Program-made: the position numbers and the translations under genes
Source of the DNA: a virus
Virus record (IMG/VR): IMGVR_UViG_3300007511_000019
Reading direction: 5' to 3' (one strand)
Length of the DNA stretch: 64,000 nt
Notes under the pieces: generated by a model
What the model was told of the DNA's origin: nothing
Database searches by the model: none
Seen by the model: only the letters and a program-made list of their open reading frames with translations
Shown: piece after piece, positions 5,468 to 33,045 of the stretch
How the letters are laid out: each line of letters opens with the position of its first letter
Numbering within the stretch: position 1 is the stretch's first letter

Positions 5468-6292
5468 ATGTTTGAACGATTTACCGACAGAGCACACCAT
5501 AGCTTCACCGAAGCCAAGCGTTTTGCCAAACGCCTGCGGCACGAGTACATCGGCGTAGAGCATGTCGTGTACGGTCTGCTCAAAAGCGGTGGCATTGCCC
5601 AGACCGTGCTCAACAACGCTAATGTCTTTGCCGGAGATGTCGAACGATTTATGGCTGCTCGGCTTGGCGACGGTCCTAGCTATATAGTCTATGTGGACAG
5701 CCTACCGAGGACTCCTCGCTGTAAACGTGTGACGGACAAGGCGATAACCTACTCAAGTGACGTGGATGGTCTGTACGTAGGAACTGAGCATCTGCTACTG
5801 GCTATACTGGACGAAGAAGACAGTATGTGGCTTGATCTGCTTAGCAAAGTAGGCTCACGGACTGTTGAGCAGCTTCGCATGGACGTTAGACTGTCGCCCA
5901 GTTCAGCGAAGCCGGTCACCTACATGTTTGGCGTATTTGACCCATTTCACGTGGGTCATTACATGCAGTTGGAGCGTGCTGCCGAGTTGGGCAGCAGCCT
6001 GATAGTCGGCGTCCAGTCTGACGCTGCCGTCGAGAACGAGCATGGAAACCCGCCGCTCTTGACACTTTCATCGCGTAGGCGGCTGCTTAACGCGTTGCCT
6101 GTTGTAGATGCAACGGTAACCTATACCGAACCCGACCAGTCCAGTGTACTTAGCGTTTTAGCTCCGAGCATCTTTGTCTGCGACCCGCTTTACGATCAGG
6201 AGCAAACTCTGGCATACTGCAAAGACAATAACATCCGCGTTGAGCGAATGTTGTCGGAATCGGTGCCATGTAATCCTCGTTCGATGTCGTAA
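5468..6292 (+). CDS. fusion of a Clp N-terminal repeat domain and a cytidylyltransferase-like nucleotidyltransferase
   Basis: Residues 1-140 contain two Clp_N repeats (YIGVEHVVYGLLKSGGIAQTVL and YVGTEHLLLAILDEEDSMWLDLL). The C-terminal half has GVFDPFHVGHYMQLERAAELGSSLIVGV, matching the (H/T)xGH motif of glycerol-3-phosphate cytidylyltransferase / RfaE domain II enzymes. Confidence 0.65.
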   Translation: MFERFTDRAHHSFTEAKRFAKRLRHEYIGVEHVVYGLLKSGGIAQTVLNNANVFAGDVERFMAARLGDGPSYIVYVDSLPRTPRCKRVTDKAITYSSDVDGLYVGTEHLLLAILDEEDSMWLDLLSKVGSRTVEQLRMDVRLSPSSAKPVTYMFGVFDPFHVGHYMQLERAAELGSSLIVGVQSDAAVENEHGNPPLLTLSSRRRLLNALPVVDATVTYTEPDQSSVLSVLAPSIFVCDPLYDQEQTLAYCKDNNIRVERMLSESVPCNPRSMS

Positions 6293-10613: not shown

Positions 10614-11960
10614 ATGGAACGTAAGCACTTTGCCTACGCAGCCGCCGCCGTTCTCGGCGTCGTCGCACTGATTGTTTTGTTTGGAAATATGGGGTACAAC
10701 CGCGACGACCAGTGGCAAATCCACCAGTCTGTTACGGGCAAGATCACGGTGATTGACCGTGGCGGTTACTACCTCAACATGTTCGGTACCGTAACTGACT
10801 ACCCGCGTTACCGTGACTCGTTCTACTCGGCCCACCACAAGGAAGGCGGTGAAGAGGACGATTCGATTCGGTGCACCTTTAACGACGGCGGCACCGCTAA
10901 GGTGTCGGTGTACGTTAGGTTCTCCACTCCCCCAGAGGAGGACCAACGTCGAGCATTCCACCGTGTGTATTCTGCGAACATTGACAACACCTCGCAGGCG
11001 GTACGGGCTCACCTTGTTAACTGCGTTAAAGCGGCGGCACCGCTAATGTCTGCTAGCGAGAACCAGGCGTCACGCAAAGCCGAGTTTGCTCAAGTCATTC
11101 AGAACATGATGCAAGACGGCCTATACGTGATGCGACAAACAAGAGTTACTCTCGAAGATCAGGCGTTGATCGAAGTAGAGGCCAACGCGGACGGTAAGGC
11201 TCCCGTTCTTCGCGAGAAGCCTACCGAGGTTATGGCGACAGAGATCGTGCGAGATACCGAGACAGGTAAGCCGCTGATCGCTGAAGCATCGCCACTGACC
11301 AAGTACGGTATCGGGGTTGAGCAATTCTCGGTTACCGATATTGACTATGATCCAGAGACCCTCAAACAGTTCGCTGCGAAGAAAGAATCGTTCTTGCTGG
11401 CGGAACAGGCTAAGGCCCAACGACAGCAGTTCGTACAAGAGAAGCTGAAGATCATCGCTGAAGGTGAATCTGAAGTTGCCCGTATCGAGCAAGAGGGAAA
11501 CAAAGAGAAGATGGCCGCGACAGTATCCGCCGAGAAAGAGGCGGCTGTGGCAATCATCAACAAAGATAAAGCCGTGACCGAGGCTACACAAAAGGTCGAG
11601 GTGGCCCAGCAAGAAAAGCTGGAAGCCGACACCCGATTTGAGATTGCCGAAGTCCAGGTCAAGATCGCGGAAGAGGATAAGAAGGCCGAGATTGCCGTCG
11701 CCGAAGCCAAACAAAAGGCTCTGGAGATCGGCGGTGCTCTGTCGGAAGAAGAACGCGTTCTTGCAGAGATCGCTGCCGAACGCGATGCTAAGGTCGCCAC
11801 AGCCCTTGCTGGGTTAAAGGTACCAGGCGTCGTCATCGTCGGCGGTAAAGGTAGTGACTCAGGTGGTGGCGGAGAAAATCTCCAAAGCAATCTGATCAAC
11901 CTTACACTGTTGCGAGCCCTGGGGATCATTCCCAAAGACGCGACGAAGCCCGTCGAGTAA
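10614..11960 (+). CDS. SPFH/band-7 (flotillin/YqiK-like) membrane protein (start at ATG 10614 with RBS AGGTAGGAG)
   Basis: An N-terminal TM segment (AAAAVLGVVALIVLF) is followed by an SPFH-like globular region. The long C-terminal E/A/K/Q-rich coiled coil (AEQAKAQRQQFVQEKLKIIAEGESEVARIEQEG...) is typical of flotillin/HflKC-type proteins. Confidence 0.65.
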   Translation: MERKHFAYAAAAVLGVVALIVLFGNMGYNRDDQWQIHQSVTGKITVIDRGGYYLNMFGTVTDYPRYRDSFYSAHHKEGGEEDDSIRCTFNDGGTAKVSVYVRFSTPPEEDQRRAFHRVYSANIDNTSQAVRAHLVNCVKAAAPLMSASENQASRKAEFAQVIQNMMQDGLYVMRQTRVTLEDQALIEVEANADGKAPVLREKPTEVMATEIVRDTETGKPLIAEASPLTKYGIGVEQFSVTDIDYDPETLKQFAAKKESFLLAEQAKAQRQQFVQEKLKIIAEGESEVARIEQEGNKEKMAATVSAEKEAAVAIINKDKAVTEATQKVEVAQQEKLEADTRFEIAEVQVKIAEEDKKAEIAVAEAKQKALEIGGALSEEERVLAEIAAERDAKVATALAGLKVPGVVIVGGKGSDSGGGGENLQSNLINLTLLRALGIIPKDATKPVE

Positions 11961-12051: not shown

Positions 12052-12453
12052 ATGCCAACAACCAACCAACTGGTTCGCAAGAACCGCAGAAAGCCAAGGA
12101 ACAAGTCCAAGCACCGGCTGATGCAGGAAAACCCGCAGCGGCGAGGAACAGTGCTAAAGGCTTGGGTGATGTTGCCGCGTAAGCCCAACTCAGCTAACCG
12201 CAAGGTGTGTCGGGTCCGGTTTGCCGATGGCAACGAGGCGACGTGCCACATTCCGGGCGAAGGCCACAACATCGTGGAGCACAACACCGTGCTCGTGCGA
12301 GGCGGCGGCCCACCTGATCTGTCCGGCGTTAAGTACCGTGTTGTTCGCGGTACGCTTGACTGTATCGGCGTTACCGAAGGTGCTAACAAGCAGCGGCGAA
12401 ACCAAGGCCGCAGCAAGTACGGTTCGCCAAAACCGTCCAAAGCAAAGAAGTAG
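12052..12453 (+). CDS. rpsL: ribosomal protein uS12 (S12) homolog, bacterial type
   Basis: The match to bacterial S12 is near full length: [14 protein letters not shown]..., [51 protein letters not shown], and SKYG. An RBS (AGGAG) lies 9 nt upstream. Confidence 0.85.
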
Positions 12454-13285: not shown

Positions 13286-14020
13286 ATGTCCAACATCCCG
13301 TTAGTGACTGCTGTAATGGTCACCGGGAAGGATCCTGAAAGAGCACCGTATGCTCTGGCGGCAGTACAGAGCTTCTTGTCGCAAACCTGGCCCAATAAGG
13401 AATTGGTCATCATCAATGACGGCAAAGTGCCGTTGTTACCGTTCCTGTCTACCAGTTTACCCCCTGGTACCGATATTAGAGAATCGACATTTCCGTCAGG
13501 AGCTTACACACTAGGCGATCTTCGTAACAAAGGCTTAGAGAAAGCTGACGGCGAATGGGTTATACAGTGGGACGATGACGACTGGTACCATCCTTGGCGA
13601 ATCGCTATGCAGATGGACGAGGCCGTTGACGACCACGCCGTTTTGCTAAAGTGTCAAGTCCGATACAGTTTTCCTAACGATTCTGCGAAAGCTTTTCGGT
13701 GGCCTTACAAACCCAACCCGGCCATTCCCGGCACCGTTCTGCACCCCAACAAACCAGGCCTGGCCTATCGTTCTGAGCGTAAAGCTGAGGACGACCACTT
13801 TTTGCAAGACCACTTCAAGGACAAAATGATCGTTCTTGATAATGCAGCCAACCCGCACCTCTACTTGCGGTTTTTCACAGGACACAACACGTGGGACCAT
13901 TTCCACGTCATGGGTCTGCACGCTAACCCGGACCATAAAGGTAGGTGGACCTTACCAGAAGAATCTTCTGATTACCTTCGTACGGTCATTGACACCCACT
14001 ACAAATTTGCGGTTAGCTAA
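13286..14020 (+). CDS. glycosyltransferase family 2
   Basis: VTAVMVTGKDPERAPYALAAVQSFLSQTWPNKELVIINDG matches the GT2 N-terminal block, and there is a DXD motif (QWDDDDWYH). Confidence 0.65.
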   Translation: MSNIPLVTAVMVTGKDPERAPYALAAVQSFLSQTWPNKELVIINDGKVPLLPFLSTSLPPGTDIRESTFPSGAYTLGDLRNKGLEKADGEWVIQWDDDDWYHPWRIAMQMDEAVDDHAVLLKCQVRYSFPNDSAKAFRWPYKPNPAIPGTVLHPNKPGLAYRSERKAEDDHFLQDHFKDKMIVLDNAANPHLYLRFFTGHNTWDHFHVMGLHANPDHKGRWTLPEESSDYLRTVIDTHYKFAVS

Positions 14021-14953
14021 ATGCCAGAATCCATCCAACAATATCTGATCACTGGAGCCAACGGCCAGCTAGGGATGGAACTGGTGCGGCAGCTGGGCGA
14101 GGAGTCTGTAATAGCCAAGCCCCGCGAGACCTTCAACGTATCCGACATGACGAAGGTCAAGGAACTGATTCCTTTGCTGCGACCAGCCGCTGTTATCCAT
14201 ACCGCTGCTATGACGGATTGGGTTACTGCCGAACACAAGCGGAATGATTGCTGGCAGACTAACGTTCAGGGGACGGACAATCTCGTTAAGGTATGTGCCT
14301 TGCACGGGATTCCTTTTGTACATATCAGTTGTGACAGTGTTTTCGGCTCCAACCGCGACCCTAGGCCGCGTACGGAGACCGATCCGGTGGTGCCTTGCCA
14401 CCAACTGGCTATTACGAAAGCATGTGCTGAGCACAGCGTGCTCCGACTTGGGCAATGTGTTTGCCCCGAGTTTTGGCAAAAAGGCTTCCGGTACTGGGTT
14501 ATTCGCACAGGACTTCTGTACGAACGCCCATGGCGACAAAACCAGAACCTCGTCAGCCGGATACTTCGTCAAGCGGATAACCGCCGTGGCGAAGAGGTGT
14601 CCCTTGCTTCCGACATGATCTTCACTCCGACATACGCTCCGCACCTGGCCAAGGCTCTGGTCTGGTTGGTGCGGCACTACCGTGAAATGCCGTCGGGTGT
14701 ATACCACGTTGGCAATCTAGGTCACTGTTCTGCCTACCAGTTTGGGCAAGAAATCTCGTCAAATTCACGACGTCCGCTAAAGATCCGGTCAACTACACGC
14801 GAACAGATGTCGCAGGCCTTCGGTGGCTGGGACGCTAAGCTCCTGCCATACCATACGGCTCTCGACTGTAGCAAATTCGCTGATGTAGTACCTATTCCTC
14901 TGCCGGATTGGCGGGAAGGTGTCGAGCAATTTTCGCTTGACTACGAGAGTTAA
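14021..14953 (+). CDS. RmlD-like NAD(P)H-dependent 4-ketoreductase (dTDP-4-dehydrorhamnose reductase family)
   Basis: The N-terminal LITGANGQLGMEL motif, followed by VIHTAAMTDWVTAEHKRNDCWQTNVQGTDNLVKVCALHGIPFVHISCDSVFG, matches the RmlD substrate-binding-domain family. Confidence 0.65.
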   Translation: MPESIQQYLITGANGQLGMELVRQLGEESVIAKPRETFNVSDMTKVKELIPLLRPAAVIHTAAMTDWVTAEHKRNDCWQTNVQGTDNLVKVCALHGIPFVHISCDSVFGSNRDPRPRTETDPVVPCHQLAITKACAEHSVLRLGQCVCPEFWQKGFRYWVIRTGLLYERPWRQNQNLVSRILRQADNRRGEEVSLASDMIFTPTYAPHLAKALVWLVRHYREMPSGVYHVGNLGHCSAYQFGQEISSNSRRPLKIRSTTREQMSQAFGGWDAKLLPYHTALDCSKFADVVPIPLPDWREGVEQFSLDYES

Positions 14954-15214
14954 GTCCATATTGGTGCAGCACATGCGATCGTGGTAAACTATTGGGCTGT
15001 TCAACAGGCCGAAGGCACCGGCTGGTTTGGAGACGCCTCTGCTCCGGAAAAGGAAACGAGCAAGCGTCCGGCAACCGTACTTGGTAACAACCGTGGTACG
15101 GGAGGTGGAGTGGTGGGTGTGCCTATTAGACGCCACAGTAACCGGTCAGAAAAGCCGGTAGGTCCTCGGGAGGGGAATCCGGGGTGTTGAGCACTCGTAA
15201 TGGAAACTAACTGA

Positions 15215-15664
15215 ATGAATCATCACGATGAACATCCAGAAGGGGCAGCCATGGACGGTAAAATCATTGAAGTCTTGGACCGGCTCGCTGATCGGCTACA
15301 CGATCAGGAACAACCGTCCGGCCTGTTGTCGATCGAAAAGATCGTCGCGGCGGTCATCATGTTACTTGTCACCGGTGTATGTCTTTGGGTTGGATCATCC
15401 TTGACCACGATGACTCAAAAGGTGATCGAGCTTCAGGCCAACGTTTCACACCAGAGCCAGACAGTCGCCGAACTCAAGGCGGAGGTTCGCGACTTACGTA
15501 CTGGGGCACTCAGTACCAGCACGAATAACACACAAAACATTCAACTCATTCTCGAGCGAATGAAAGCCGACGACGCCCGAGAGATTCGCGACGACGAAAC
15601 CATCGCAGAGATCCGTCGACAGATCCAGGCATTACAGGAACAAGTTAGAGGTAACAAACCGTGA
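15215..15664 (+). CDS. membrane protein with a coiled-coil region
   Basis: A central TM helix (VAAVIMLLVTGVCLWVGSSL) is flanked by charged helices. Confidence 0.4.
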   Translation: MNHHDEHPEGAAMDGKIIEVLDRLADRLHDQEQPSGLLSIEKIVAAVIMLLVTGVCLWVGSSLTTMTQKVIELQANVSHQSQTVAELKAEVRDLRTGALSTSTNNTQNIQLILERMKADDAREIRDDETIAEIRRQIQALQEQVRGNKP

Positions 15665-16176
15665 GCCTGTATCGTCCCAGTACAGTAACGACGCCAGGCC
15701 AGGCCCTCTACGAGCTGTCTCACGACTTCGTGAAGGTCTCCAGCAAACCATGGCTGTCGTATGGGCTGGCAGGCAAACTCTATATCTCCAACTCCGGCTG
15801 GGGCCTGCTTAGCGTCCCAAACGCCCTTGTTCACGGTGCTTTCGACGCCCTGGAAGAACCCGGCGTAGAGCTGCCGCGACAGGACAGCGGGACATTTAAT
15901 GCCCATATTTCTGTCTTTCGCAAGGACGAAATCGATAAAATCGGGGGATCTGGCAAAATCAGGGAACGCGGTCACACTTTTCGGTACACCCTCGGACCGG
16001 TAAAATGTGTGAAGCCCTATGGTTGGGACGAAATGTCCAAAGTGTGGATGATCGAGGTCCACTCACCCGAACTACAGAACCTGCGGAAAAGCTACGGGCT
16101 ATCTGCGTTGCCCAAGGACAATAGGTTCAAGTTCCATATCACCATAGGAGTCCGACGCAAGAACGCATTCAAGTAA
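15661..16176 (+). CDS. 2H phosphoesterase superfamily protein (LigT / cyclic phosphodiesterase-like)
   Basis: Two H-x-T/S-x motifs are present (AHISVF and FHITIG), spaced about 90 aa apart as in LigT/CPDase. The GTG start overlaps the upstream stop (GTGA). Confidence 0.55.
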   Translation: MSLYRPSTVTTPGQALYELSHDFVKVSSKPWLSYGLAGKLYISNSGWGLLSVPNALVHGAFDALEEPGVELPRQDSGTFNAHISVFRKDEIDKIGGSGKIRERGHTFRYTLGPVKCVKPYGWDEMSKVWMIEVHSPELQNLRKSYGLSALPKDNRFKFHITIGVRRKNAFK

Positions 16177-16198
16177 CGTCTACCCTAACGGAGTAGTA

Positions 16199-16651
16199 AT
16201 GGGCGACTACACTGTGCGACTTGAATACAGGCCAGGGGACAAGAACGACCATCTCGCCGAGGTCATCCGTCGCCTGGACGAAAAGTGCTTTCCGGACAAG
16301 GACGTACATCGAGAGCCGTTTGGTACAACCTGGTGGTGGATCGCCAGGGATAAGACTAACGGATCACCTGTTGGCTATGCTGGCCTCAGGTATCTTACAA
16401 AACCCGATGACTGTGCCTACTTCTGCCGAGCTGGGGTGATTGCCTCGCATCGTGGACAGGGGTTGCAAAAACGCCTCATACGGGCCAGAGTGGCGTATGC
16501 AAGGCGGCAAGGTTGGTCGGGTGTTTTGACGTACACTTCCGCCGACAACTATCCGTCGGCAAATTCTCTCGTCAGCCAAGGCTTTCGGCTTTACAGCCCA
16601 AGCTTCGCATGGTCTGGTAGAGAGATGTTGTATTTTCGACTATTGTTCTAG
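16199..16651 (+). CDS. GNAT family N-acetyltransferase
   Basis: Motif A is RGQGLQKRLI, and the GNAT-like beta/alpha layout is recognisable. Confidence 0.65.
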   Translation: MGDYTVRLEYRPGDKNDHLAEVIRRLDEKCFPDKDVHREPFGTTWWWIARDKTNGSPVGYAGLRYLTKPDDCAYFCRAGVIASHRGQGLQKRLIRARVAYARRQGWSGVLTYTSADNYPSANSLVSQGFRLYSPSFAWSGREMLYFRLLF

Positions 16652-16659
16652 AGGACATA

Positions 16660-17016
16660 ATGACTAAAGCAGATCTCCAGAGCCGCATCGCAACAGCGGC
16701 ACAAGGCGAGCTAGGAGGCCCACAAACAAGCCAGGGGAACAGCCCCCGCCTATTGGAGCAAATCATGGCAGCAGGAGAGCAACGAGCTGAACGCAAGATT
16801 GGTCGCGTCGAGTACTCAGAGGAAGAGTGGGCAGAACTGATGGAGCTGATTCAGGCATGGTACGACGGCGACAACCCGGTATTAGCCGAAATGACTGTAT
16901 GGACGCTGCAAAAAGAGATTAAACGTTTCATGCCACGTACGCCCTCGCCAAATACTTTCATCAAGTATTTGCAGGACAACAATCTCATGCCTAACCGAGA
17001 AAGCACTGACAAGTAA
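16660..17016 (+). CDS. hypothetical protein
   Basis: ORF of 118 aa. Confidence 0.4.
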   Translation: MTKADLQSRIATAAQGELGGPQTSQGNSPRLLEQIMAAGEQRAERKIGRVEYSEEEWAELMELIQAWYDGDNPVLAEMTVWTLQKEIKRFMPRTPSPNTFIKYLQDNNLMPNRESTDK

Positions 17017-17019
17017 CCC

Positions 17020-18213
17020 ATGGCCAAAAAGAAGCAGTCCCTCAAAGAGCAGGTAGAAGCTCGAGGACAGGAGGCCCAGGTAGCCGCAGACGACCGTGTG
17101 CGGCTTCTGACCAAGGAAAACAAACGCCTCTCTTCACAGCTATCGCGGGCCAAGTCCGACGCGGCTGTGTACATTCAAGAGGCCAAAGACATTCTCGGAG
17201 AGCAAGTTACATTTGTGCTTGCCCCACCCGAGGTTGCCCCTGACGACAAGCGTAAGGGCATTCGCGAGGAACGCCCCGTATTCTGTTTGGGTGACGCTCA
17301 CTTCGGACACTACGAGCCCAAAGGCCCGCACAAGTTCGATAAAGACATCGCCCGCGAACGTGTGCTGCAAGCCACTAGCAAGTTCATTGCTACTACAAGG
17401 GACAGGCGAAGCAGTGCCCGTATTGATACGTGCCATCTCTACTTCATCGGCGATATGGTCGAAGGTGAGATGATGCGGCTGGGGCAAGCACACGGTATCG
17501 ATAGCCCTGTGTTCCTGCAGGCGATGTATCACGCCCCTGGTGCTATGGCTGAAGCCATCGTAGCCCTGGCGGCTGAGTTCAAAGAACTGATCATCGTCGC
17601 AGTCCCGGGCAACCACGGACGTAACGGGCGGTTCGGTAACGGTGCCCACCCCATGACTAACTGGGATCGCGTAGCCTACCAAACCTGTCGACACATGGTC
17701 GAGTCTGCCTTACTCAAGCTGGGTAAGAAAGGCGAGAAGCTGTGGAAGCGTATCAAGTGGAATCTGCCTACCGATCGCTCGTTGGACGAAGACTGTCCGG
17801 ACGACGACTACTTGGCAATCGACTACGTGTTCGATTGGTGTAACTGCCTAGCCCATGGTGAAAACCTCAGGGGTAAAGGTTGGGGCGGTATTCCGTTCTA
17901 CGCTGTCGAAAAGATGGTTACCCGATACGACGCCATCCTCGACGACCCGATCGACTTTATGTACATGGGTCATATCCACGTACATGCAAGCATCCCGTCG
18001 AATTATCGGCAGGTGTTCGTGAACGGGGCGATCGAGTCCAGCACAACGTTCGTCCGAAAGGAACTCATGTCGGCGAACCCTCCGAGTCAATCGGCAGTGT
18101 TCTACGATCCGGAATTGGGACCGATTAGCGAACACACGTTCTATCTGTGTGATCGATTCCCGTCAGGCACGCGAGTCATGTCGGCACTCAAGAACCGGGG
18201 GATCATCCAGTGA
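17020..18213 (+). CDS. calcineurin-like metallophosphoesterase with an N-terminal coiled coil (phosphatase or SbcD/Mre11-like nuclease)
   Basis: All four MPP motifs are present: CLGDAHFGH, IGDMVEG, GNHGRNG and MGHIHVH. Confidence 0.65.
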   Translation: MAKKKQSLKEQVEARGQEAQVAADDRVRLLTKENKRLSSQLSRAKSDAAVYIQEAKDILGEQVTFVLAPPEVAPDDKRKGIREERPVFCLGDAHFGHYEPKGPHKFDKDIARERVLQATSKFIATTRDRRSSARIDTCHLYFIGDMVEGEMMRLGQAHGIDSPVFLQAMYHAPGAMAEAIVALAAEFKELIIVAVPGNHGRNGRFGNGAHPMTNWDRVAYQTCRHMVESALLKLGKKGEKLWKRIKWNLPTDRSLDEDCPDDDYLAIDYVFDWCNCLAHGENLRGKGWGGIPFYAVEKMVTRYDAILDDPIDFMYMGHIHVHASIPSNYRQVFVNGAIESSTTFVRKELMSANPPSQSAVFYDPELGPISEHTFYLCDRFPSGTRVMSALKNRGIIQ

Positions 18214-18260
18214 GATGGTGATCTAAATAAGCCAGACCTTCGCGTCACAATAAATTGGTA

Positions 18261-18294
18261 AGGGCTTAGCTCGGATGCTAAGCCCTCTTTTATT
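18261..18294 (+). terminator. rho-independent terminator
   Basis: Perfect 10-bp stem (AGGGCTTAGC / GCTAAGCCCT) with a 6-nt loop, followed by CTTTTATT. Confidence 0.7.
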
Positions 18295-18302
18295 GCCGTC
18301 AG

Positions 18303-18638
18303 ATGATGGAGGCTTTCATGCAAAGCCAGCGAAGTGTCGAGGTCGGGCCAGACTACCTGGATGTGGACGTCCGACAACTTGTCTTACACTGGAATAGTCA
18401 CATCCATACGTTTGGGTTCGATGTGATATACGTCAACAGCAATGACAACATTTCAGTTAAGCAAGGCGGACTTTACCGCAACGAAATCCCGACACTCTGT
18501 GAACTGGGCAGACGGGTACTTGACTTCTTCCCGTATGGCTTCTTCCCCCCTGAGATTGCAAGCCAGCTCGCGGCCATACGTGCCGAATCTACGTCGCTTA
18601 ACAGACGATCGCGACCACTGGCCGCGTTCATGAGTTAG
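18303..18638 (+). CDS. hypothetical protein
   Basis: ORF of 111 aa that sits between two terminators. Confidence 0.3.
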   Translation: MMEAFMQSQRSVEVGPDYLDVDVRQLVLHWNSHIHTFGFDVIYVNSNDNISVKQGGLYRNEIPTLCELGRRVLDFFPYGFFPPEIASQLAAIRAESTSLNRRSRPLAAFMS

Positions 18639-18660
18639 GCTGCGAGAAGTCACACTAGTG

Positions 18661-18689
18661 GGTCCCGACGAAAGTCGGGGCCTTTTTTT
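18661..18689 (+). terminator. rho-independent terminator whose U-tract is part of the conserved TTTTTTTAGCTATCAG motif
   Basis: Stem CCCGAC / GTCGGG with a GAAA loop and a 7-T run. Confidence 0.65.
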
Positions 18690-18711
18690 AGCTATCAGGG
18701 CCTGCTAGAAT
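18683..18711 (+). promoter_or_regulatory. conserved motif TTTTTTTAGCTATCAG followed 7 nt later by TAGAAT (copy 1)
   Basis: Identical 16-mers occur at 18683, 21930 and 62103. Here TAGAAT is at 18706-18711 and the ATG is at 18730. Confidence 0.5.
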
Positions 18712-18729
18712 CTTTGGGAGGAGATCCTT

Positions 18730-20509
18730 ATGCCCAATATCTTGCTGCCTGAACTCAGCACTGACGCCGAAGAGATGTCTATGCTCGGATTCCCGATCGG
18801 GAATTTGGAGAAGGTATCATCACCCCTAACAGGGGGTTTGTGGCCAGAACTTCTTTCGTATCTTCCCGTTCGGGAAAATCGCCTCCATGGGGAAATTCAC
18901 GAAAAGAGGGGTGAAGACGCGAAAGGCATTCCAGACCGAAAGTACTATGGCGACCTATCTAGAGTTTCTCCGCAGTTACTGGACTTCGTTATCCAACGGC
19001 ATCTTGCCGAGAGAGCTGGCCCTCACTTTGATTTCCGATTCGGAGACCCCAAAGGGCTCTTCTCCTGGGCAACCAGAAAACCGATGCCCGGCATTGGCGG
19101 ACGAACCGCCCTATTCCAGCAGCCCATGCACTCCTACAAGTACAAAGATTGGGAGGGCACAATTCCTAGCGGACGCTATGGGGCTGGACGGGTTAAGAAA
19201 CAAGAGGATGGCAAACTTCTCATTACCAAAGCCAGTCCGGAATCTATCCACTTCACCATGGCCCACAAGAAGCACCCGCAACGCTTCGTGATGATCAAAC
19301 CGAAGGGCTGGAAAGATAAAGACTGGTTGCTTATCAACAAGACCCCGACTGAGCAATTGCCGTACGAGAAAGTACGGTACAAAAAGATTCCAGCGGAGCA
19401 GGTCGACAAGTACATCGGCCAAATGCAAAAAGGCGATACTCTGGAGGCAAAGGTTGACGGGGCCTCCTCGCTGATTAAACTAATGAAAGAGGGCGTCGAG
19501 GTGATGTCCTACCGTACGTCCAAGGAAACGGGCCGACCGATACTTCACACAGAAAGATTGCTTCATGGTCTCCCCGCTTACAACATCCCAGACGACCTGG
19601 TTGGCACGGTACTTAAAGGCGAACTCTACGGAGTGCGACCTGGAGGATCCGGAGATGGTGATGGCTCCGCTGACAAGGGAGACCCTCTACGCGGCCATGT
19701 TGCTGATGAACCTCAGCTGGCGGAAGGGAGCTTTGAACCTGACGGAGGGCGAGAAAGAGATACTCGAGTTTCAGAGAGAGCAGACCAGGAGGATGTTCCC
19801 GGAACTGTTAGGCCCCAAGACGACGGACTCGGAGAATATCTTCAAGAGGCTCTTTCCGCCGGTACCGGTAGACCAACTCAGCGAGAGCGAGTACTCCGCC
19901 CTCAAGAACTTGGAGGACTGCTCAACTCCTCCGTCGCCAAATCAATCCAAGACCAGCGAGAGCGACAAGTAAAACTCAGAAATGCCGTTTACGATATCCA
20001 ACAGCTAGGCAACAAACCAATCGACTGGCATGTGACTCCCCGGCTCGAGCGTAGGGATATGATTCGAAAAGTTCTTGAGCACCTACCGCCCGAGACGTTT
20101 CACATCTCAGAAGCCGCAGAGACGCCCGAAGCCGCCCAGAGACTCTGGCAACAAATACAGTCTGGTGAGCACCCGATTACTCGAGAGGGTGTAGTCATGC
20201 ATCCGCTACACGGTCCCCCCACGAAAGGAAAAATTTTAGAAGACGTAGACGTGTATTATCGCCAAGCATTTCCGGGCAAAGGTAAACACGAAGGATCGGG
20301 TGCTGGCGGCTTCGAATACTCACTCACACCTGACGGGCCTATAATTGGTAAGGTAGGAACAGGTTTCACGGACGAGTTACGCAGGTCCCTTTTCGAGAAC
20401 GATCAAGACTATGCCGGAAGGATTGCACGAATCCAATCGCAAGAACAGCTTCCTAGCGGAGCTTATCGAGCACCGAGCTTTCTGGCTTTTCACGAGGATC
20501 AACCTTATG
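18730..20509 (+). CDS. LigD-type 3'-phosphoesterase domain fused to an ATP-dependent polynucleotide ligase (no in-frame stop, so the 3' end is uncertain; the tracker ORF runs to 21927)
   Basis: PE domain: GPHFDFRFGDPKGLFSWATRKPMPG...DWEGTIPSGRYGAGRV matches the LigD phosphoesterase signature. Ligase motifs: I is KVDGAS, III is LKGELYG, IIIa is AVYDI, IV is EGVVMH, plus an OB fold (GKVGTGFTDE...RAPSFLAFHED). A low-complexity insert of about 110 aa lies between motifs III and IIIa. Confidence 0.6.
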
Positions 20510-21046
20510 CAACAACGAAACAGTCTAGGCAGGTTTCTGCAAGGACACAAATCCAGAACGACTCACGGACAAAGTGGAACGAAAACATACAAGGTGTGGG
20601 CGGGGATGAAACGCCGCTGCCTGGACCCAAAACGGCACAATTACAAACACTACGGAGGACGAGGCATAAAGATATGTGCAAGGTGGCGGGACTCCTTCGA
20701 GAACTTTCTGGAAGACATGGGAACGTGCCCAGACGGTTATTCGCTGGAGAGGGAGAACAACGACAAAGACTACTGTCCCACGAATTGCACTTGGATACCT
20801 CTCGAGAAACAGGCAGCAAACACTCGGAGCAACGTGTGCTTGACTTTTCGCGGCGAAACCAAGCATCTGACACAATGGGCGAGAGAGTCGGGAATCAGGC
20901 AGCAGACATTGACCAGGCGTCTTCAGCGAGGTTGGTCCGTGCAGCGTGCACTAACCGAGAAGCCAGTAGTAGGCAAAAATCAATTCTCGTCCAGCCAGAC
21001 CTCGGACTCACGTCTGAAAAACTCGCTGAACTCGGGATCGGAATAG
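20507..21046 (+). mobile_element. free-standing HNH/AP2-like homing-endonuclease gene with a C-terminal helix-turn-helix (+1 frame relative to the ligase ORF)
   Basis: YKVWAGMKRRCLDPKRHNYKHYGGRGIKICARWRDSFENFLEDMG...GYSLERENNDKDYCPTNCTWIPLEKQAAN is typical of phage HNH homing endonucleases, and LTQWARESGIRQQTLTRRLQRGWSVQRAL is an HTH tail. The ATG at 20507 coincides with the expected C-terminus of the ligase OB domain. Confidence 0.6.
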
Positions 21047-21049
21047 ATC

Positions 21050-21927
21050 CCGACGAGCACACAGCCCTGGAAAAAGAAGCCTCACTTGCTAGACTTCTGA
21101 CACTACCTGGCGTCAAGCACCTACTTCGCTGGCAGTCAAAGCTTGGTCGGAAGGCTAACGACTACTTGTGGAACAAACTGCTAACCGCAAATCGCCGAAC
21201 CGCGTTGGGCACCGCAGGCGTCGTAGGCGGTGCCGGTTACGGCGGCTACCGGATGGGCCAAGGCGACTGGCAAACTCCAGGCGACATTCTACACGACCCG
21301 ATCATCCAAAAGCCGCTGGAATGGTCTACAGTTATCCCGGAGAAATATAACATCCCATTGTGGACAGCAGCAGGTATTGCTGGTGGCCGTAGTGTGGGCC
21401 GTCACGCGGCCCAAGCCGCCGTAGGCAGTGCCAACGCGTTGCGGCGGCTAGTTACGATGCAGCCCTTATCGCAAGCGTTGTCTGGTCAAATCGGTAGTAC
21501 CCTTGGTGTTGCTGGGCCTATCTTAGGCGGTGCCAAAGGCGGCGTCGGAACCTACTACACTCACCGGGCAGTAGAGAAAGCCAGGGAAGCTGCTGAGCAG
21601 CCAACAGTACCTGAAGTCAAGCACAGCACAGATTCGCACTACCTGCGAGCCTTCTCCCAAGTAAACCCTGCACACCTTTACCGAGGCGACCAGTCTGCTC
21701 TGCGTAACGCTAGCAACTACATCAACGCCTTGTTAATACAGGGTCGGCAAAACGTCGCCAAAGCCTATAATACTGATAGCCTCAACCTGGCCTTGGCTCC
21801 GATGGGGCAACGTTGGCAACGAGCCTTGGCCAGTCTTGAGGGTTACGATCCCATCATGTCCAATCCCCTTGATCGGGTGTTGCACATGATGCCAGCAACC
21901 CCGCAGCTGAGTCGTCCGTACGTATGA
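21050..21927 (+). CDS. Gly/Ala-rich putative membrane/virion protein encoded by the 3' part of the 18730-21927 ORF (start undefined)
   Basis: Segments such as TAGVVGGAGYGG, AAGIAGGRSVG and GVAGPILGGAKGG resemble the downstream gene 21953-22792. There is no ATG near the 5' end, so an alternative start or continuation of an upstream exon is possible. Confidence 0.3.
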
Positions 21928-21929
21928 CC

Positions 21930-21945
21930 TTTTTTTAGCTATCAG
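21930..21945 (+). promoter_or_regulatory. conserved motif TTTTTTTAGCTATCAG (copy 2), directly after the stop at 21927
   Basis: Exact 16-mer. There is no clear upstream hairpin and no TAGAAT downstream (the ATG is at 21953). Confidence 0.4.
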
Positions 21946-21952
21946 AGAAACC

Positions 21953-22792
21953 ATGGACCTACTGGAAAAGACTCGCGAGCTAATTGAATGGCAACGTGTG
22001 CCCGAGACGGCTGTGGCTCTCTTTAACGAGAAACGAGCCGAAATCCTTGAGGCGTTTGAAAAGGACGCCTACTCGCCCACGTTGCGTACTTTAGGCGAAT
22101 CCATGAATTTGTTGCCGGGCAAGTTTCCTGGCGGCATACCCAACGCCCCCTCCCCGTTGGCCTCAATGCTGGTCAGCGGCATGGCTGGCGGTGCTCTAGG
22201 CTACGGTCTGGGTACTGTTGGCGAAGCTGTCTTACCCAAGGAATGGAAACGTAGACGACTTCGCCGAACCCTCGCCCTACTGGGTGCCGGAGCCGGAATG
22301 GCTCCCGGAGCCGCCTGGGGCATGGTAAACATGGGGGATGATCGCAACTTCAACGACCCCTCGCTAATCACAGGACCGGCTTCTCCGTACCAGGGAGAGA
22401 AGACAGCGGTTCACGATGAGATCAAACAGTCCTATGATAATACAGGCCTGGAGGGTTCCTTTACACCGATCCCAGTTAACGAGTTCAACCAGATCATCTG
22501 GAAAGATCCTCGAGTGTCGCGACCTCTCTCACCGGCCGTTCAAGCTGCAGCCACCGGGCTTGTTACCGGAGCCGCTAATCTGCCGGGCCGACGTAATGTG
22601 AACTTTGTCACACCAATGGATATTGGACGTATGGCCGCAGGTATGGGCTCGGGTTACCTCTCTGGGGCCCTTGTCGGTAAAGCCCTCGGCACTATGATGG
22701 GAATGCCGCCGTCTACGCAGGACCGGCTAAAAAGTACCGGTATGTGGGCAGGTATGGTGGCTAATCTAGTTCCTATTGCCTTTGGAGGCTAA
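21953..22792 (+). CDS. Gly-rich putative membrane/virion protein
   Basis: The protein is 279 aa with GxxxG-rich hydrophobic segments. Confidence 0.4.
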   Translation: MDLLEKTRELIEWQRVPETAVALFNEKRAEILEAFEKDAYSPTLRTLGESMNLLPGKFPGGIPNAPSPLASMLVSGMAGGALGYGLGTVGEAVLPKEWKRRRLRRTLALLGAGAGMAPGAAWGMVNMGDDRNFNDPSLITGPASPYQGEKTAVHDEIKQSYDNTGLEGSFTPIPVNEFNQIIWKDPRVSRPLSPAVQAAATGLVTGAANLPGRRNVNFVTPMDIGRMAAGMGSGYLSGALVGKALGTMMGMPPSTQDRLKSTGMWAGMVANLVPIAFGG

Positions 22793-22793
22793 T

Positions 22794-23420
22794 GTGGCCA
22801 AGCGTTGCATCAAGATCTACGGGCTGACACGTACTTGCACCAACCTCACCATGCTGTTGCTACAGCGAAATTTCGATTGCACCGTCTGGTCGAACGAAGG
22901 TGACAGTTGGAAACACGGCAGAAACAAAATCGAGAACCGCAAGGTAAATCTACCTGAGCGTAACATGGTTGCAGAGGACATCCGCTTCGTTATCTGTACC
23001 AAACATCCATACACTTGGTTCTTCTCGCAGTTGCGTTGGGAGAACCGGCAAGGCGGATTTCGTCGGAATATGGACGACTTGCTCAAATACTCCAACACCT
23101 ATCAAGGGTGTCCGTTCAAAGCCTACAACGAACTCAACAAGCACTGGCTAACGCTTTCAGACGACCCAGCCATTTTGCAGCAAGTTACCCAGGAAGAACT
23201 GGAAGCAGACCAAGGCAAGGTATTAGCTCGCGTCGAAAAAGCATTCGACTTGCCCCGCCTTCATACAGATTGGCAGTTGGAGCACCGTAGTGTGCGGCCT
23301 AATCTGAAGCCGACTTCAGCTTACCAAAAACGGAATCAGCAGCTGTTGCCAGGGCAGAAAGCTTATGCGGACAGCAAGTTAGACCGCGAGACGTTACAAC
23401 TACTTGGCTACGAACTCTAG
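22794..23420 (+). CDS. hypothetical protein (GTG start with RBS GGAGGC; the tracker TTG start is at 22776)
   Basis: The N-terminus YGLTRTCTNLTML is Ser/Thr-rich and P-loop-like. Any resemblance to sulfotransferases is weak. Confidence 0.35.
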   Translation: MAKRCIKIYGLTRTCTNLTMLLLQRNFDCTVWSNEGDSWKHGRNKIENRKVNLPERNMVAEDIRFVICTKHPYTWFFSQLRWENRQGGFRRNMDDLLKYSNTYQGCPFKAYNELNKHWLTLSDDPAILQQVTQEELEADQGKVLARVEKAFDLPRLHTDWQLEHRSVRPNLKPTSAYQKRNQQLLPGQKAYADSKLDRETLQLLGYEL

Positions 23421-23961: not shown

Positions 23962-24234
23962 ATGACCACTGCAACGATGCTCACCGTTATCGGCCAACGA
24001 CTACTCATTCGCCGCGATACTGCCCCAACAAAGAGCGAAGGCGGTATTCATCTACCCGAGCAGGTACGAGAGAAGCTGAGTGAGGGTAACGTAATCACCG
24101 CCGGTGCCAAGTGCGAACACGAATTTACCGAGGGCCAACGTGTGGTCTTCAACCCTTACTCGGGCGATACCGTCAAAATCGACGGAGAAGATTTGTTGGT
24201 CGTCCGCGAAGACGATATCCTACTGGCGTTCTAA
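23962..24234 (+). CDS. groES: co-chaperonin GroES (Cpn10) homolog
   Basis: The 90-aa protein matches GroES at IGQRLLIRRDTAPTKSEGGIHLPE, GNVITAGAK and GQRVVFNPYSGDTVKIDGEDLLVVREDDILLAF. An RBS (AAGGA) lies upstream. Confidence 0.75.
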   Translation: MTTATMLTVIGQRLLIRRDTAPTKSEGGIHLPEQVREKLSEGNVITAGAKCEHEFTEGQRVVFNPYSGDTVKIDGEDLLVVREDDILLAF

Positions 24235-25116: not shown

Positions 25117-25894
25117 CCAACCTACCTTCTACGACGCTGTACAACACGTCACTGCTAAGGCTTTGCAACGTAAAGCTCTAGCTGGAGCAGGTACAGCGGC
25201 ACTAGCTGGTCTCGGTACTGGTGCAGGTCTACGAGGTATCCTCGGCCTGTTGGAAATGAGCAGGCAAGGTGCCCAGCCGCCCCAGGCTCAAGCCCCTACC
25301 GGTCAGATCGAGGTCCCGGTGGACGACGAGAAGATCGCTGCCTTGGCGGATTTCCTCAAAGGCGACTATGCCAAATCGACTTCTGGTGTGCCTTGGGCCA
25401 TTCCTGCCGCTGTTGGTGCCGGTGCTGCCGGAGCGTACGGTGGTTGGAAAGGTATCGACGCACTGCTCGAGCAAAGACGAAAAGGCGAACTAGAGGCTGA
25501 GCTTGAAAAAGCCAAGATGGACTACGAAGCTGCCTTGTCTGGCGACACCAAGTTAGCGGAAGACCTGGACGAACTCTACGACACAGTAGAGAAACAAGCT
25601 GTCTCCGCGTCAGACGCAGCAGGAACGGCTACAGGACTCTACGGAGTCTACGGCGGTACTTCAGCTTTGTTGGCCGCCATTATGGCTTACCAATACGGTA
25701 AGAAGCGACAACGCCGGTCCTTGCTTGAAGCGGCACAAGAGAAACGCCGCCGACAACGCTTTGCACGACAACCTGTGCCGATCCAAGTACGGCCAGTGCC
25801 TAAGCAGCATGAGCAGGACCCGCTGCAGGCAAGTAAGTCCCCGTTCCAGGCCGCACCTAGCTTGGACGAACAAGAAGATCAACTGGATAAGTAA
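25058..25894 (+). CDS. hypothetical Ala/Gly-rich membrane-associated protein with a charged C-terminus (start uncertain; the tracker start is 24986)
   Basis: An RBS (AAGGAA) precedes the ATG at 25058. It is TAATG-coupled to the RNAP gene at 25894. Confidence 0.35.
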   Translation: MTNLALVLKASRQSSEKSANQPTFYDAVQHVTAKALQRKALAGAGTAALAGLGTGAGLRGILGLLEMSRQGAQPPQAQAPTGQIEVPVDDEKIAALADFLKGDYAKSTSGVPWAIPAAVGAGAAGAYGGWKGIDALLEQRRKGELEAELEKAKMDYEAALSGDTKLAEDLDELYDTVEKQAVSASDAAGTATGLYGVYGGTSALLAAIMAYQYGKKRQRRSLLEAAQEKRRRQRFARQPVPIQVRPVPKQHEQDPLQASKSPFQAAPSLDEQEDQLDK

Positions 25895-28800
25895 TGCCAA
25901 ACATTCTGTCACCGCCCTCCGGCGTGCTAAGCGGGACCAAACCTGCTCTGCCGCAACCGGTACGTCCTCTGCAAAAAGAGGAACCGGAAAAGCGAGAGTT
26001 CGGTGACGCTTTGGCCACGCGGCGGCTTATCTACAACAACGTGCTGGCGTCGACTCAAACACTTGAGCCGATCTCTAACCAACGCCACACGCTACAACTG
26101 CGTGATGTTAAATACGCTGACGATCCCAAGTTCTCGTACAAGCAGCAAAAGGAAGCCATCCTCGGCGGTAAGAGTCTCAACCGTCGACTGCAAGGCACCT
26201 GGGAGCTGTCGGATAACGAAACTGGCGAAGTGCTTGACAGCAGGCCCGGCGTAGTTGCTCGTGTACCGCACCTGACGGATCGCGGTACGTTTATCCACAA
26301 CGGTAACGAGTACACCCTGTCCAACCAGATGCGGTTGCGGCCAGGCGTGTTTACCCGTGTCAAAGACAATGGAGAAATTGAAGCCCACGCAAACCTATTG
26401 CCGGGTAAAGGCGTCAGCCACCGGTACTTCCTAGACCCCGAGAAGGGTATTTTCCACATGCGGATGGGGCAGGCGAAAATACCGCTGATGCCTCTTCTCA
26501 AGTCGCTCGGAGCAACAGACAAACAATTGCAGGAAGCATGGGGCAACGAACTGTGGCAAGCTAACGCTCAAAAGGACAACCCAGGAACCCTATCGAAGCT
26601 GTACCAAAAACTGGTACGTAAGATTGACCCTGATGCCGACGAGCCAGCTAAACGCCTAGCCGTTGCCGAAGTCATGGAGAAAATGGAACTGGACCCCGAG
26701 GTTACACAACGAACCTTAGGTAACAGTTTCAACAGGATGGGGTTGGATGCGATTCTAGCCACCACCAATAAATTGCTCGCAGTATCCCGTGGAGAACAGG
26801 AGGTCGATGACCGTGATCATCTCGCTTATCAAAATGTCCTGGGCCCAGAAGATTTGTTCGCGGAACGTATCGCAAAGGATTATGGCGGACTCCGCCGACA
26901 ACTTTTGCATAGATCTAGCTTTAAGGGAGACTTGTCAGCCGCACAGTCCGGTATGCTAAGTCGCCAGTTAGAAGCCGCGTTACTCCATTCTGGATTAGGG
27001 CAAAGCCTTGAAGAAATCAACCCAGCAGACATCTTCGACAAACAATCAAGAATCTCACGTCTCGGTGAGGGCGGCATCCCGTCCATCGACGCCGTGCCAG
27101 ACGAAGCTAGGGCGGTTCAGCCGAGCCACTTGGCTTTCATGGACCCAGTACGCACGCCGGAATCATTTAAGGTCGGTGTGGATGTGCATATTGCCAACAC
27201 GGCTCGTAAAGGATCTGATGGCCGAATTTACTCACCGTTCGTTGATCCTCGTAGCGGAAAAGAGGTGTGGAAGTCGCCCCAGGACCTTGCAGATCTCACA
27301 GTCGCTTTTCCCGGCGAAATGCGTAGGGAAACTAAGCGGGTTGGTGCCATGCAAGGCGGCAAACTCAAGTTTGTCCCAAAACAGTCTGTGGACCTGGTTG
27401 TGCCCACTTTCGAAAACGCTTTCTCGCCGCTAGGTAACATGGTTCCCATGAAGTCAGCGGTCAAGGCCCAGCGTATGGCTATGGCTAGCCGTATGCTCAC
27501 ACAGGCCTTGCCGCTCGAGAACGCAGAGAGTCCGCTTGTACAGACCGGCATCTCTGGCGAAGAGGATACAAGTTACGAGCAGCGATATGGTCGTAAGATG
27601 GGTGCCGTCTTCGCCGACAAGCCAGGACGAGTAGTTTCAATAAGCGACCAAGGGATTAAGGTCAAGTACGACGACGGAACTACAGAAGAGAAGCAGCTCT
27701 ATAACAACTTCCCGTACAACCGCAAAAGCGTAACCGGTGACACTCGTATTGTGATCCGACGCAAGAATGGCGAACTGTGGACTGGATCAATCGATAAGTA
27801 CCACTGGGAAGATAGCGACCAAGTGCAGTCGGTGGACCCAGACTCCAAGCAGTCTGCCTGGAAACGCGTCACAGGTTACATTACGCACTGCAACGACAAA
27901 CAGCTGTTGCGGATAACTACTAAATCCGGGAGATCGGTCGTGGTCACGGAAGACCACAGCCTTATTACGCTGGACAAACACGGAGAACTGGTACCGGTCT
28001 ACCCTAAAGACTGCGAGATCGGGCTAACCCGCCTGCCTGTAGCCATGTTGCAGGGTCATCGATCTCGGCGACATGGCCAGGAGATTAGCAAAGACCCGAG
28101 CGGCATTCTGTGGGGGCTGTACGTAGCCGAGGGGCACTGTCCGCCTACCCAACCAGGGCTAGTTAACATTGCAGTAGAGCCAGACGACCGTGCAGAACAG
28201 GTGTTGGAAGTGGCTCGTCAGTGCGGTTATGAGGCGTACCGCAATGGCGGTAACGTATGCTTTACTGACCACGCCTTCGCCGCCAAGGCGACTGAGCACT
28301 TTGGCCACCTGTCGCACAACAAGCGAATTCCCGCCTGGGTGCTTGGTACTCCCGTCTGGTTTCGGGAAAGTTTTGTTCAAGGCTATATGGCTGGCGACGG
28401 GTGCTTGTGGGAGGACTCAAACGGGTCGCTACAGCTGCAGGCCGTTACGGTTTCTAGAGAGCTTCGCGACGGATTTGTCGAGTTGCTGTTAAGCCTAGGC
28501 ATTATGACGACGCTTTTCGATGCACCTAGAAAGCACCTCAACGACAACTGGCGTGACGCGTACGGTTGCCGCATAATCAGTAGCCACGTAGGGCGACTTC
28601 GTAAGTGGTTCTACTACGCAGACCGTGAGCGACAACTCCACGAGCTGCTAAAGCCTACGTATCGAGCCGCAAGCTTTGACCTGGTCCCGGTAGCCGCCGA
28701 GGCCCGTAAACTTCTGTACAAGGGTTATATCGGGACGGTTCCTAGCTATGTCTATAAGACCGCCAACCAGGGAGCAGTTGCTAAGCACCGGTTGAAAGAA

Positions 28801-32792: not shown

Positions 32793-33045
32793 GCAATTGC
32801 GGGCTCGAATGGCCCGACCAGCTACCCCCACACTCAAAGTTCTGTCTGTCTGGGTACAGCACGGAGTAGAACAGCAGTTACTGCCCATAGCATCTGGCGA
32901 TGACGACGCCCAGCTGCGTGGACTGCTTGCAAATTGGGAGCAGCAACTGGACTACGGGGAAATGGTCGCTTCAAACATGCGGTATCTAGGGCGGCACCGG
33001 ATTGTAACAGTTCCTTTCATCGGACGGCAAAATGGCAAAGCGTAA
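32761..33045 (+). CDS. hypothetical protein
   Basis: The 94-aa ORF overlaps both neighbouring genes. Confidence 0.25.
   Translation: MALQGGFGVPEQLRARMARPATPTLKVLSVWVQHGVEQQLLPIASGDDDAQLRGLLANWEQQLDYGEMVASNMRYLGRHRIVTVPFIGRQNGKA

Follow-up and report, generated by a model that had tools for sequence, protein, structure and literature searches.

We analyzed a locus on the + strand of a 64-kb stretch of virus DNA (the window) from the IMG/VR record IMGVR_UViG_3300007511_000019, and all positions given are those of the whole window. The locus encodes a 1065-amino-acid (aa) polyvalent protein in which a LigD-type 3'-phosphoesterase (PE) domain is joined to an ATP-dependent ligase, herein termed the PE-ligase. 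Upstream of it lie genes for a 2H phosphoesterase, a GNAT acetyltransferase, and a calcineurin-like metallophosphoesterase (MPP), and a homing-endonuclease-like gene (HEG) is nested in another frame of the PE-ligase open reading frame (ORF). The window is phage-like, with nearly all of its long ORFs on the + strand and a G+C content of ~54%. Relatives that share synteny with it were found on contigs of 185 to 234 kb, and the window is therefore assigned to an uncultured jumbo-phage lineage. Sequence identical to the window is present in three ENA metagenome scaffolds. A blastn search of positions 15200 to 23000 against 50,697 cultured-phage records returned no DNA-level relative, and a tblastn search with the PE-ligase against the same records gave no match. 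An original prediction, made from the sequence without database searches, had recognized the 2H, GNAT, MPP, and PE-ligase proteins, and all four were confirmed on the + strand with their domains and catalytic motifs kept. The 2H gene and the features of the PE-ligase ORF, whose domain layout was drawn from comparison with relatives, are as follows.

15661-16176, + strand: standalone 2H-SAK phosphoesterase, 171 aa, motifs H82-I-S and H159-I-T
18730-21927, + strand: polyvalent PE-ligase ORF, 1065 aa, with a junction motif, LigD-type PE, ATP-dependent ligase, HEG-bearing linker, second junction motif, Gly-rich region, and ~95-aa module
18733-18810, + strand: junction motif copy 1 (~25 aa), aa 2-27, PNILLPELSTDAEEMSMLGF..., found with a hidden Markov model (HMM) of the motif
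18982-19344, + strand: LigD-type PE domain, aa 85-205 (PF13298, E 5e-10; PDB 3p43)
19402-20505, + strand: ATP-dependent ligase, nucleotidyltransferase and OB domains, aa ~225-592, ending ...RAPSFLAFHEDQP (PHROG_114, E 1.4e-14)
19633-19899, + strand: hypervariable loop rich in G, D, E, and R, aa 302-390, between ligase motifs III and IIIa; 89 aa here and 41-126 aa in relatives
20506-20976, + strand: host-frame linker, aa 593-749, 157 non-conserved codons and no stop
20507-21046, + strand: nested HEG-like gene, 179 aa from the ATG at 20507, in the +1 frame (PHROG_3377 "HNH endonuclease", E 1.1e-55)
20977-21057, + strand: junction motif copy 2, aa 750-776, KSILVQPDLGLTSEKLAELGIGIDPDE (KSILVQPDLGLTSEKLAELGI...), found with the motif HMM
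aa ~777-957 of the PE-ligase ORF, + strand: glycine-rich region, delimited by comparison with relatives
21601-21894, + strand: conserved ~95-aa module near the C-terminus, aa ~958-1055, common to a few relatives

The catalytic residues of both enzymatic domains of the PE-ligase are intact. The LigD_N match spans aa 89-190 (E 5e-10, 39.9 bits against a cut-off of 31.1), and the PE domain aligned with the PDB LigD-PE structures 3p43 and 3p4h at E 1e-12, or 2e-22 by profile search. H91, H99, D101, and R103 of the PE catalytic set are at least 90% conserved, H134 is invariant, and Y138 was read from the sequence; the same His/His/Asp/Arg/His/Tyr set is present in bacterial LigD and in the archaeal standalone LigD-PE. 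K241 in the KVDGAS motif of the ligase is the predicted adenylylation lysine, and ligase motifs I, Ia, III, IV, and V are represented by residues invariant across 25 sequences (K241, D243, G244, S260/R262, E298, E486-G487, K499, and K501). Throughout this family, the PE domain is attached to the ligase. A hidden gene in the hypervariable loop was also considered, with the +1 frame open in 3 of 4 loci; it had no homology and no PHROG match, and the segment is taken as a variable, disordered loop.

By its sequence relationships, the ligase is of the DNA-ligase type, with a nucleotidyltransferase and an OB fold, and not of the Rnl type. PDB DNA ligases matched it by profile, weakly (3e-4 to 7e-2; 9fzx at 3e-4 and PBCV-1 at 4e-3), and relatives of the PE-ligase matched PF01068 and PF14743. 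Together with the PHROG_114 match, these assignments do not bear out the comparison to T4 Rnl1 that had been proposed. As in bacterial LigD, the PE domain shares one polypeptide with an ATP-dependent ligase and, by analogy, 3'-end cleaning would be followed by sealing. Unlike LigD, however, the PE-ligase ORF has no polymerase/primase domain, no Ku was found among the window proteins scanned, and the ligase is a divergent minimal nucleotidyltransferase and OB enzyme with a long variable loop. It also differs from LigD in being phage-encoded, within a polyvalent protein that has junction motifs, a Gly-rich tail, and a nested HEG. The NCBIfam LigD equivalogs scored far below their cut-offs (TIGR02777, 52 against 144 bits; PRK09632, 55 against 989 bits). 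Because the polymerase domain is missing and the equivalog scores are below cut-off, we do not regard the PE-ligase as a bona fide LigD.

The upstream 2H protein matched the Pfam family 2H-SAK (PF22547) at E 9.4e-13, above the curated cut-off, and has a 2H fold. It carries the two HxT/Sx motifs described in the original prediction (H82-I-S84 and H159-I-T161); across 34 homologues both His residues are invariant, and conservation reaches at least 90% at S84 and T161. Comparison with the 120 best PE-ligase relatives revealed that 27 have a 2H segment fused to the PE-ligase, nearly always at the N-terminus, and that this segment is 38-59% identical to the window 2H (46-59% in 26 of the 27). Neighborhoods were counted at 60 loci holding a PE-ligase, with a distance limit of 10 kb. 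At 13 of these (L005, L008, and 11 further IMG/VR loci) a 2H was found within the limit, three of them with both domains in the same ORF. These sequence comparisons strongly support a link between the 2H and the PE-ligase, which is the only such link in the cluster.

The PE-ligase relatives are 600-1800 aa long, and the partners of their PE-ligase core comprise 2H-SAK, inorganic pyrophosphatase (InPase), SNF2 helicase, kinase, HAD, NUDIX, GNAT, and C39 peptidase domains as well as inteins. Many unrelated enzymatic domains thus occur per polypeptide, and the architecture varies among relatives, as in the polyvalent or "Swiss Army Knife" class of phage proteins, to which the PE-ligase belongs. 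The polyvalent proteins of phages and conjugative elements are large and contain variable strings of enzymatic domains (PMC5512222). In that survey (Iyer et al. 2017) LigD-PE is absent from the text and polyvalent 2H domains were never seen with RNA ligases, whereas the 2H ortholog here is repeatedly fused to a DNA-ligase-type enzyme. Three of the relatives illustrate the range of architectures.

Relative P0109: SNF2 helicase, P-loop kinase, HAD, PE, ligase
Relative P0032: 2H, InPase, PE, ligase
Relative P0010: 2H, PE, ligase, HAD, InPase

An InPase was added to the PE-ligase core in P0032, P0034, and P0010, a pairing that makes functional sense because adenylylation of the ligase releases pyrophosphate.

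Enzymes of the 2H class open 2',3'-cyclic phosphates. LigD-PE enzymes, which have been characterized on primer-template DNA ends, remove 3'-phosphates and trim 3'-ribonucleotides, and ligases with nucleotidyltransferase and OB domains seal 3'-OH/5'-phosphate nicks in duplexes. We consider it somewhat probable, at roughly 55%, that the PE-ligase is a jumbo-phage polyvalent protein for 3'-end healing and nick sealing that is aided by the separately encoded 2H enzyme. Its core would be a LigD-type, Mn-dependent 3'-phosphoesterase joined to a minimal ATP-dependent enzyme of the DNA-ligase type. Going by the activities of the families, the 2H enzyme would open 2',3'-cyclic phosphate ends, the PE domain would strip the resulting terminal phosphate or trim 3'-ribonucleotides to leave a 3'-OH, and the ligase, adenylylated on K241, would seal nicks with 3'-OH and 5'-phosphate ends in duplex nucleic acid. 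As far as the protein sequences suggest, phage DNA or ribonucleotide-containing DNA would be the most likely substrate.

Several observations weigh against this interpretation. The window protein itself misses PF01068, and its OB_2 match (aa 515-586) reaches only 21 bits, short of the gathering score of 28. The preference for DNA over RNA as substrate was drawn only from the ligase type and the OB domain, and the 2H family bears a Pfam name that suggests RNA repair. In addition, a 2H is missing within 10 kb at 47 of the 60 PE-ligase loci, and terminator-like hairpins (18261-18286 and 18660-18683) stand between the 2H, GNAT, and MPP genes and the ligase gene. For the nested HEG, we infer both the translation through its region and its expression.

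The name of the 2H family is one of the points that favor the repair of RNA, specifically tRNA, against host anticodon nucleases. In such a scheme, healing of the 2',3'-cyclic phosphate would fall to the 2H and PE enzymes and rejoining of the RNA to the ligase, as with T4 Pnkp and Rnl1. The Pfam family of the 2H domain was named for "Swiss Army Knife" RNA repair proteins, a jumbo-phage review places 2H and SAK-HAD enzymes in RNA repair, and in P0109 a P-loop kinase and HAD beside the PE-ligase form a Pnkp-like pair. An SPFH/Band_7 protein (10614-11960; PF01145, E 8e-9) is also encoded 3.7 kb upstream, with glycosyltransferase and epimerase genes intervening, and Band-7 modules have reportedly been proposed as RNA-repair scaffolds. 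However, neither a 5'-kinase among the four proteins nor a Walker A motif in a plausible + strand gene of the window was found, and the DNA-ligase-type, OB-bearing ligase matched no Rnl family. The window also lacks tRNA genes and known RNA families, including any tRNA-like RNA near the SPFH gene, and DNA ends are the substrates on which LigD-PE is known. On balance, we regard tRNA repair as unlikely.

The missing kinase also limits what the enzymes could do together. No 5'-kinase was found in the window, where Walker A matches on the + strand occurred only in two short ORFs that we take as spurious, so the set cannot heal 5'-OH ends by itself; to our knowledge, classical ATP-dependent ligases are unable to seal such ends. 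The claim that the cluster supplies every activity needed at breaks with 2',3'-cyclic phosphate and 5'-OH ends is thus not sustained. What stands of the proposed end-healing and sealing function is the part played by 2H, PE, and ligase, with their intact domains and the 2H fusion in 27 of 120 relatives; a complete RNA-repair set does not. As in T4 Pnkp plus Rnl1 and in yeast and plant Trl1, a cyclic-phosphate end would be healed before an ATP-dependent ligase seals it, and the use of a 2H cyclic phosphodiesterase is a feature of Trl1 itself. The system differs from both in having no 5'-kinase, a LigD-PE in place of a HAD phosphatase, and a ligase of the DNA-ligase type with an OB domain instead of one of the Rnl1/Trl1 type.

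A different role for the 2H enzyme, perhaps shared by the MPP, would be that of Acb1-like anti-signaling nucleases that destroy cyclic or 2'-5'-linked oligonucleotide immune messengers independently of the ligase. Acb1, a 2H nuclease that acts against the cyclic oligonucleotide-based antiphage signaling system (CBASS), is 9% identical to the window 2H, and RNA cyclic phosphodiesterases scored as well as Acb1 against it. A sequence-level link of the 2H to Acb1 or to any solved structure was sought, and none was found even with a profile search. Unlike Acb1, the window 2H has orthologs fused to the PE-ligase in relatives. An anti-signaling role is improbable in our view.

The remaining features of the cluster, which include two small ORFs (16660-17016 and 18303-18638) beyond the four genes, are listed below.

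16199-16651, + strand: GNAT acetyltransferase, 150 aa (PF00583, E 5.4e-10, 40 bits against a cut-off of 20.7), assigned to no specific subfamily
16660-17016, + strand: ORF of 118 aa with no Pfam, PHROG, or NCBIfam match
17020-18213, + strand: calcineurin-like MPP, 397 aa, of the DP1/Mre11-like nuclease type (PHROG_284, E 2e-40)
18261-18286, + strand: terminator-like hairpin with a 10-bp stem and a T-rich tail, after the MPP gene
18303-18638, + strand: ORF of 111 aa with no family match (Pfam, PHROG, NCBIfam)
18660-18683, + strand: terminator-like hairpin with a 10-bp stem of which 7 pairs are G-C, followed by TTTTTTT, then GGGAGGAG and the ATG at 18730
21953-22792, + strand: Gly-zipper-like protein, 279 aa, just downstream of the PE-ligase

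The MPP protein has no Pfam match of its own and misses PF00149, which 12 of 30 members of its family do match; PHROG_284, which it matched at E 2e-40, is labeled "exonuclease". The full set of metal-binding motifs is invariant in the family (D92, G144-D145, G197-N198-H199, H279, and G317-H318-x-H320). An AlphaFold2 model with a predicted local distance difference test score (pLDDT) of 85.5 had its best Foldseek matches to the folds of the PolD DP1 exonuclease (E 1.5e-9) and Mre11 (E 8e-7). There were 86 PDB matches at E ≤0.001, and all 50 of those listed have the MPP fold. Residues 8-60 form a long N-terminal helix in the model, where a coiled coil had been noted from the sequence. Judged by its modeled fold, the DP1/Mre11-like MPP may trim ends, and it fits a DNA-end context; its membership in a module is weakly supported, and it is only a lineage-specific neighbor.

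The GNAT and MPP genes are syntenic with the PE-ligase only in the close relative L005. No segment homologous to the window GNAT or to the MPP was found among the 120 PE-ligase relatives, and just 4 of the 60 loci had an MPP of this family near the PE-ligase. As for the GNAT, it is probably an unrelated effector. The two hairpins with T-runs ahead of the PE-ligase gene suggest that it probably begins its own transcript. A functional module of all four genes, as originally proposed, is not supported by these distributions or by the intervening hairpins. A homologue of the downstream Gly-zipper-like protein is encoded after the PE-ligase in L005; in P0117 and P0118, it forms a C-terminal fusion with the PE-ligase.

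An alternative is that there is no module at all and that the PE-ligase is simply the general replication and recombination DNA ligase of the phage, with the 2H, GNAT, and MPP genes as unrelated neighbors in a variable early-gene region. The synteny of MPP and GNAT in close relatives only, the hairpins between genes, the majority of PE-ligase loci that have no nearby 2H, and the lack of any other ligase seen in the window are consistent with this. The recurrent 2H fusion argues against it, as do the kinase, HAD, and InPase end-processing domains repeatedly added to the PE-ligase core and the PE domain that is invariably joined to the ligase in this family. We find the absence of any module quite improbable and prefer a 3'-end healing and sealing protein to which the 2H is linked.

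The end of the cluster had been set at position 21046, which is the stop codon of the nested +1-frame HEG that the original prediction missed; the PE-ligase ORF continues to 21927. The HEG ORF fills almost the whole of an insertion at 20506-20976 (471 nt). This insertion is missing from L005, in which the HEG-less ligase end reads ...HEDYPQAKLGSVLVPE... and the junction ...HEDYPQAKLGSVL.... A GAGGA at 20493-20497, 9 nt 5' of the HEG ATG, is made by host His-Glu-Asp codons. The HEG product matched no Pfam HNH family and no PDB entry, and its "HNH endonuclease" label comes solely from PHROG and GenBank annotations; homologues were found in 988 cultured-phage records, mostly as free-standing genes.

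Locus L001 has an HEG copy, 50% identical, at the same site and in the same relative frame, and a survey of 61 IMG/VR loci yielded five further copies (L010, L015, L018, and two in L023), for a total of 7 copies at 6 loci. All 7 are in the +1 frame within a giant ORF and in an inter-domain linker, 4 of them where the ligase domain ends in the conserved HEDYP. Across every copy, the host frame is without a stop codon. As a null model, each endonuclease was recoded synonymously with local codon usage, under which 5.3-13.3 host-frame stops were expected per copy against 0 observed (P ≤0.003 per copy); for the window HEG, 9.1-9.5 were expected and 0 observed (P ~5e-5). The third frame of the HEG copies, an internal control, contained 4-11 stops, and free-standing homologues in cultured phages (n = 5), a natural control, had 2-26 stops in the equivalent frame. 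Host-frame peptides were unrelated between HEG copies, in contrast to the endonuclease frame, which is conserved (50% identity between the window and L001).

The simplest reading of these sequence patterns would be that ribosomes translate straight through the HEG region and that selection keeps the host frame open. A stop-free host frame would allow read-through, and the product would be a 1065-aa protein with a meaningless 157-residue linker instead of a broken gene. The constant +1 placement can be explained from the genetic code: with this placement, a host-frame stop could form only across an HEG codon boundary (T|AA, T|AG, or T|GA) and could always be removed by a synonymous third-base change. 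The other frame would be disfavored, since the conserved Met-Lys or Met-Ile dipeptide of these endonucleases would force a TGA there. A group I or II intron around the HEG was rejected, since Rfam found nothing at the gathering threshold in the whole window and nothing relevant at E ≤5 in 18500-22200. An intein was rejected as well, the HEG being in a different frame and the PE-ligase ORF having no Hint or intein Pfam match.

In L015 (11327-11340) and L023 (1249-1262; copy L023a), the HEG start codon falls within the host codons that specify the conserved Leu-His-Glu-Asp where the ligase ends, and both of these copies have an N-terminal Cys-rich extension. In L070 (Ralstonia phage AhaGv, OR820515.1 34869-35576), an HEG homologue underlies a coding sequence labeled "Rz-like spanin", which is probably a mis-annotation in the public record.

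Out-of-frame "hidden HNH" insertions have been described in actinophage DNA methylase genes as ShiLan elements (Arsenault, Gosselin and Gogarten 2025, PMC11855218). Similar to ShiLan, the endonuclease gene is in another frame of the host gene, the host frame is stop-free, no intron or intein signature is present, the distribution among host-gene homologues is sporadic, and the endonuclease start and stop are tight at the insertion borders. The HEGs differ from ShiLan in their family (PHROG_3377), in their hosts, which are jumbo-phage polyvalent repair proteins, and in their inter-domain linker sites. Our analysis goes beyond ShiLan with 7 copies, always in +1, a quantitative open-frame selection test, and natural controls.

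The PE-ligase module is bounded on each side by a copy of the junction motif (consensus [KAG]S[VI]L.P..G....[ED]L.[ED]LGI), and the motif directly follows the initiator Met in P0005, P0008, P0012, P0013, P0015, P0075, and L005. A general packaging or cleavage signal was rejected, as the HMM found the motif solely in the PE-ligase ORF of the window and in 13 of 120 relatives. The motif may act as a protease site, as a target for homing, or as a joint for recombination; as a protease site, it might serve for cutting the polyprotein into separate enzymes after delivery or packaging. A broader proposal would be that read-through HEG cassettes are general, selection-kept colonizers of the linkers of jumbo-phage polyvalent repair proteins and, with the junction motifs, could drive domain shuffling; we consider this unlikely. 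The ~95-aa module also lies within the protein in P0009 and P0015, and P0290, P0291, and P0293 have it in standalone form. Its role as a constant C-terminal anchor was discarded after an exhaustive search gave just 7 representatives, some internal and some standalone.

In the three independent ENA scaffolds L002-L004 of the same phage, 100-N assembly gaps are situated exactly on PE-ligase codons 2-61 (18733-18912), and one of these scaffolds is also gapped within an RNA-polymerase ORF (26590-26817). Such recurrent gaps suggest population heterogeneity at variable or mobile segments. The RNA polymerase beta/beta' domains are encoded in giant ORFs at 25894-31551 and 33032-36094, the first of which has intein and LAGLIDADG domains (precomputed Pfam matches), and the phage thus carries several kinds of selfish elements.

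Tail and head proteins are also encoded in the window, as is a ribosomal protein S12/S23 homologue (12052-12453; PF00164, E 2.9e-23) with a conserved counterpart at the equivalent position (1551-1940) of the 185-kb relative L005. Additionally, we identified a Cpn10/GroES-like gene (23962-24234), a Clp_N and cytidylyltransferase fusion (5468-6292), and sugar-nucleotide epimerase, dehydratase, and glycosyltransferase genes (485-1525 and 13286-14953), which are auxiliary functions typical of very large phages.

The PE-ligase repair protein and the hidden endonuclease are both of kinds already described computationally, and the most useful new points are the quantitative selection on the read-through frame and the recurrent 2H-PE-ligase fusion. 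The nested HEG provides the clearest statistical evidence of this analysis, for a selfish endonuclease inside a coding gene with neither intron nor intein; for it to persist there, the host frame need only stay open. A phenomenon first described in 2025 is thereby extended to another endonuclease family and to jumbo phages, with the warning that gene callers will take such chimeric ORFs for single proteins and overlook the endonuclease. The 2H-PE-ligase fusion, for its part, is a concrete and testable functional link, whereas the 2017 survey of polyvalent proteins had no comparable link between 2H and RNA ligases. If the proposed biochemistry is true, uncultured jumbo phages would encode a compact, self-contained 3'-end healing and sealing enzyme distinct from LigD and from T4 Pnkp/Rnl. 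This enzyme would be relevant to phage counter-defense where nucleases produce 3'-phosphate or cyclic-phosphate ends, and it might also be useful as a reagent.

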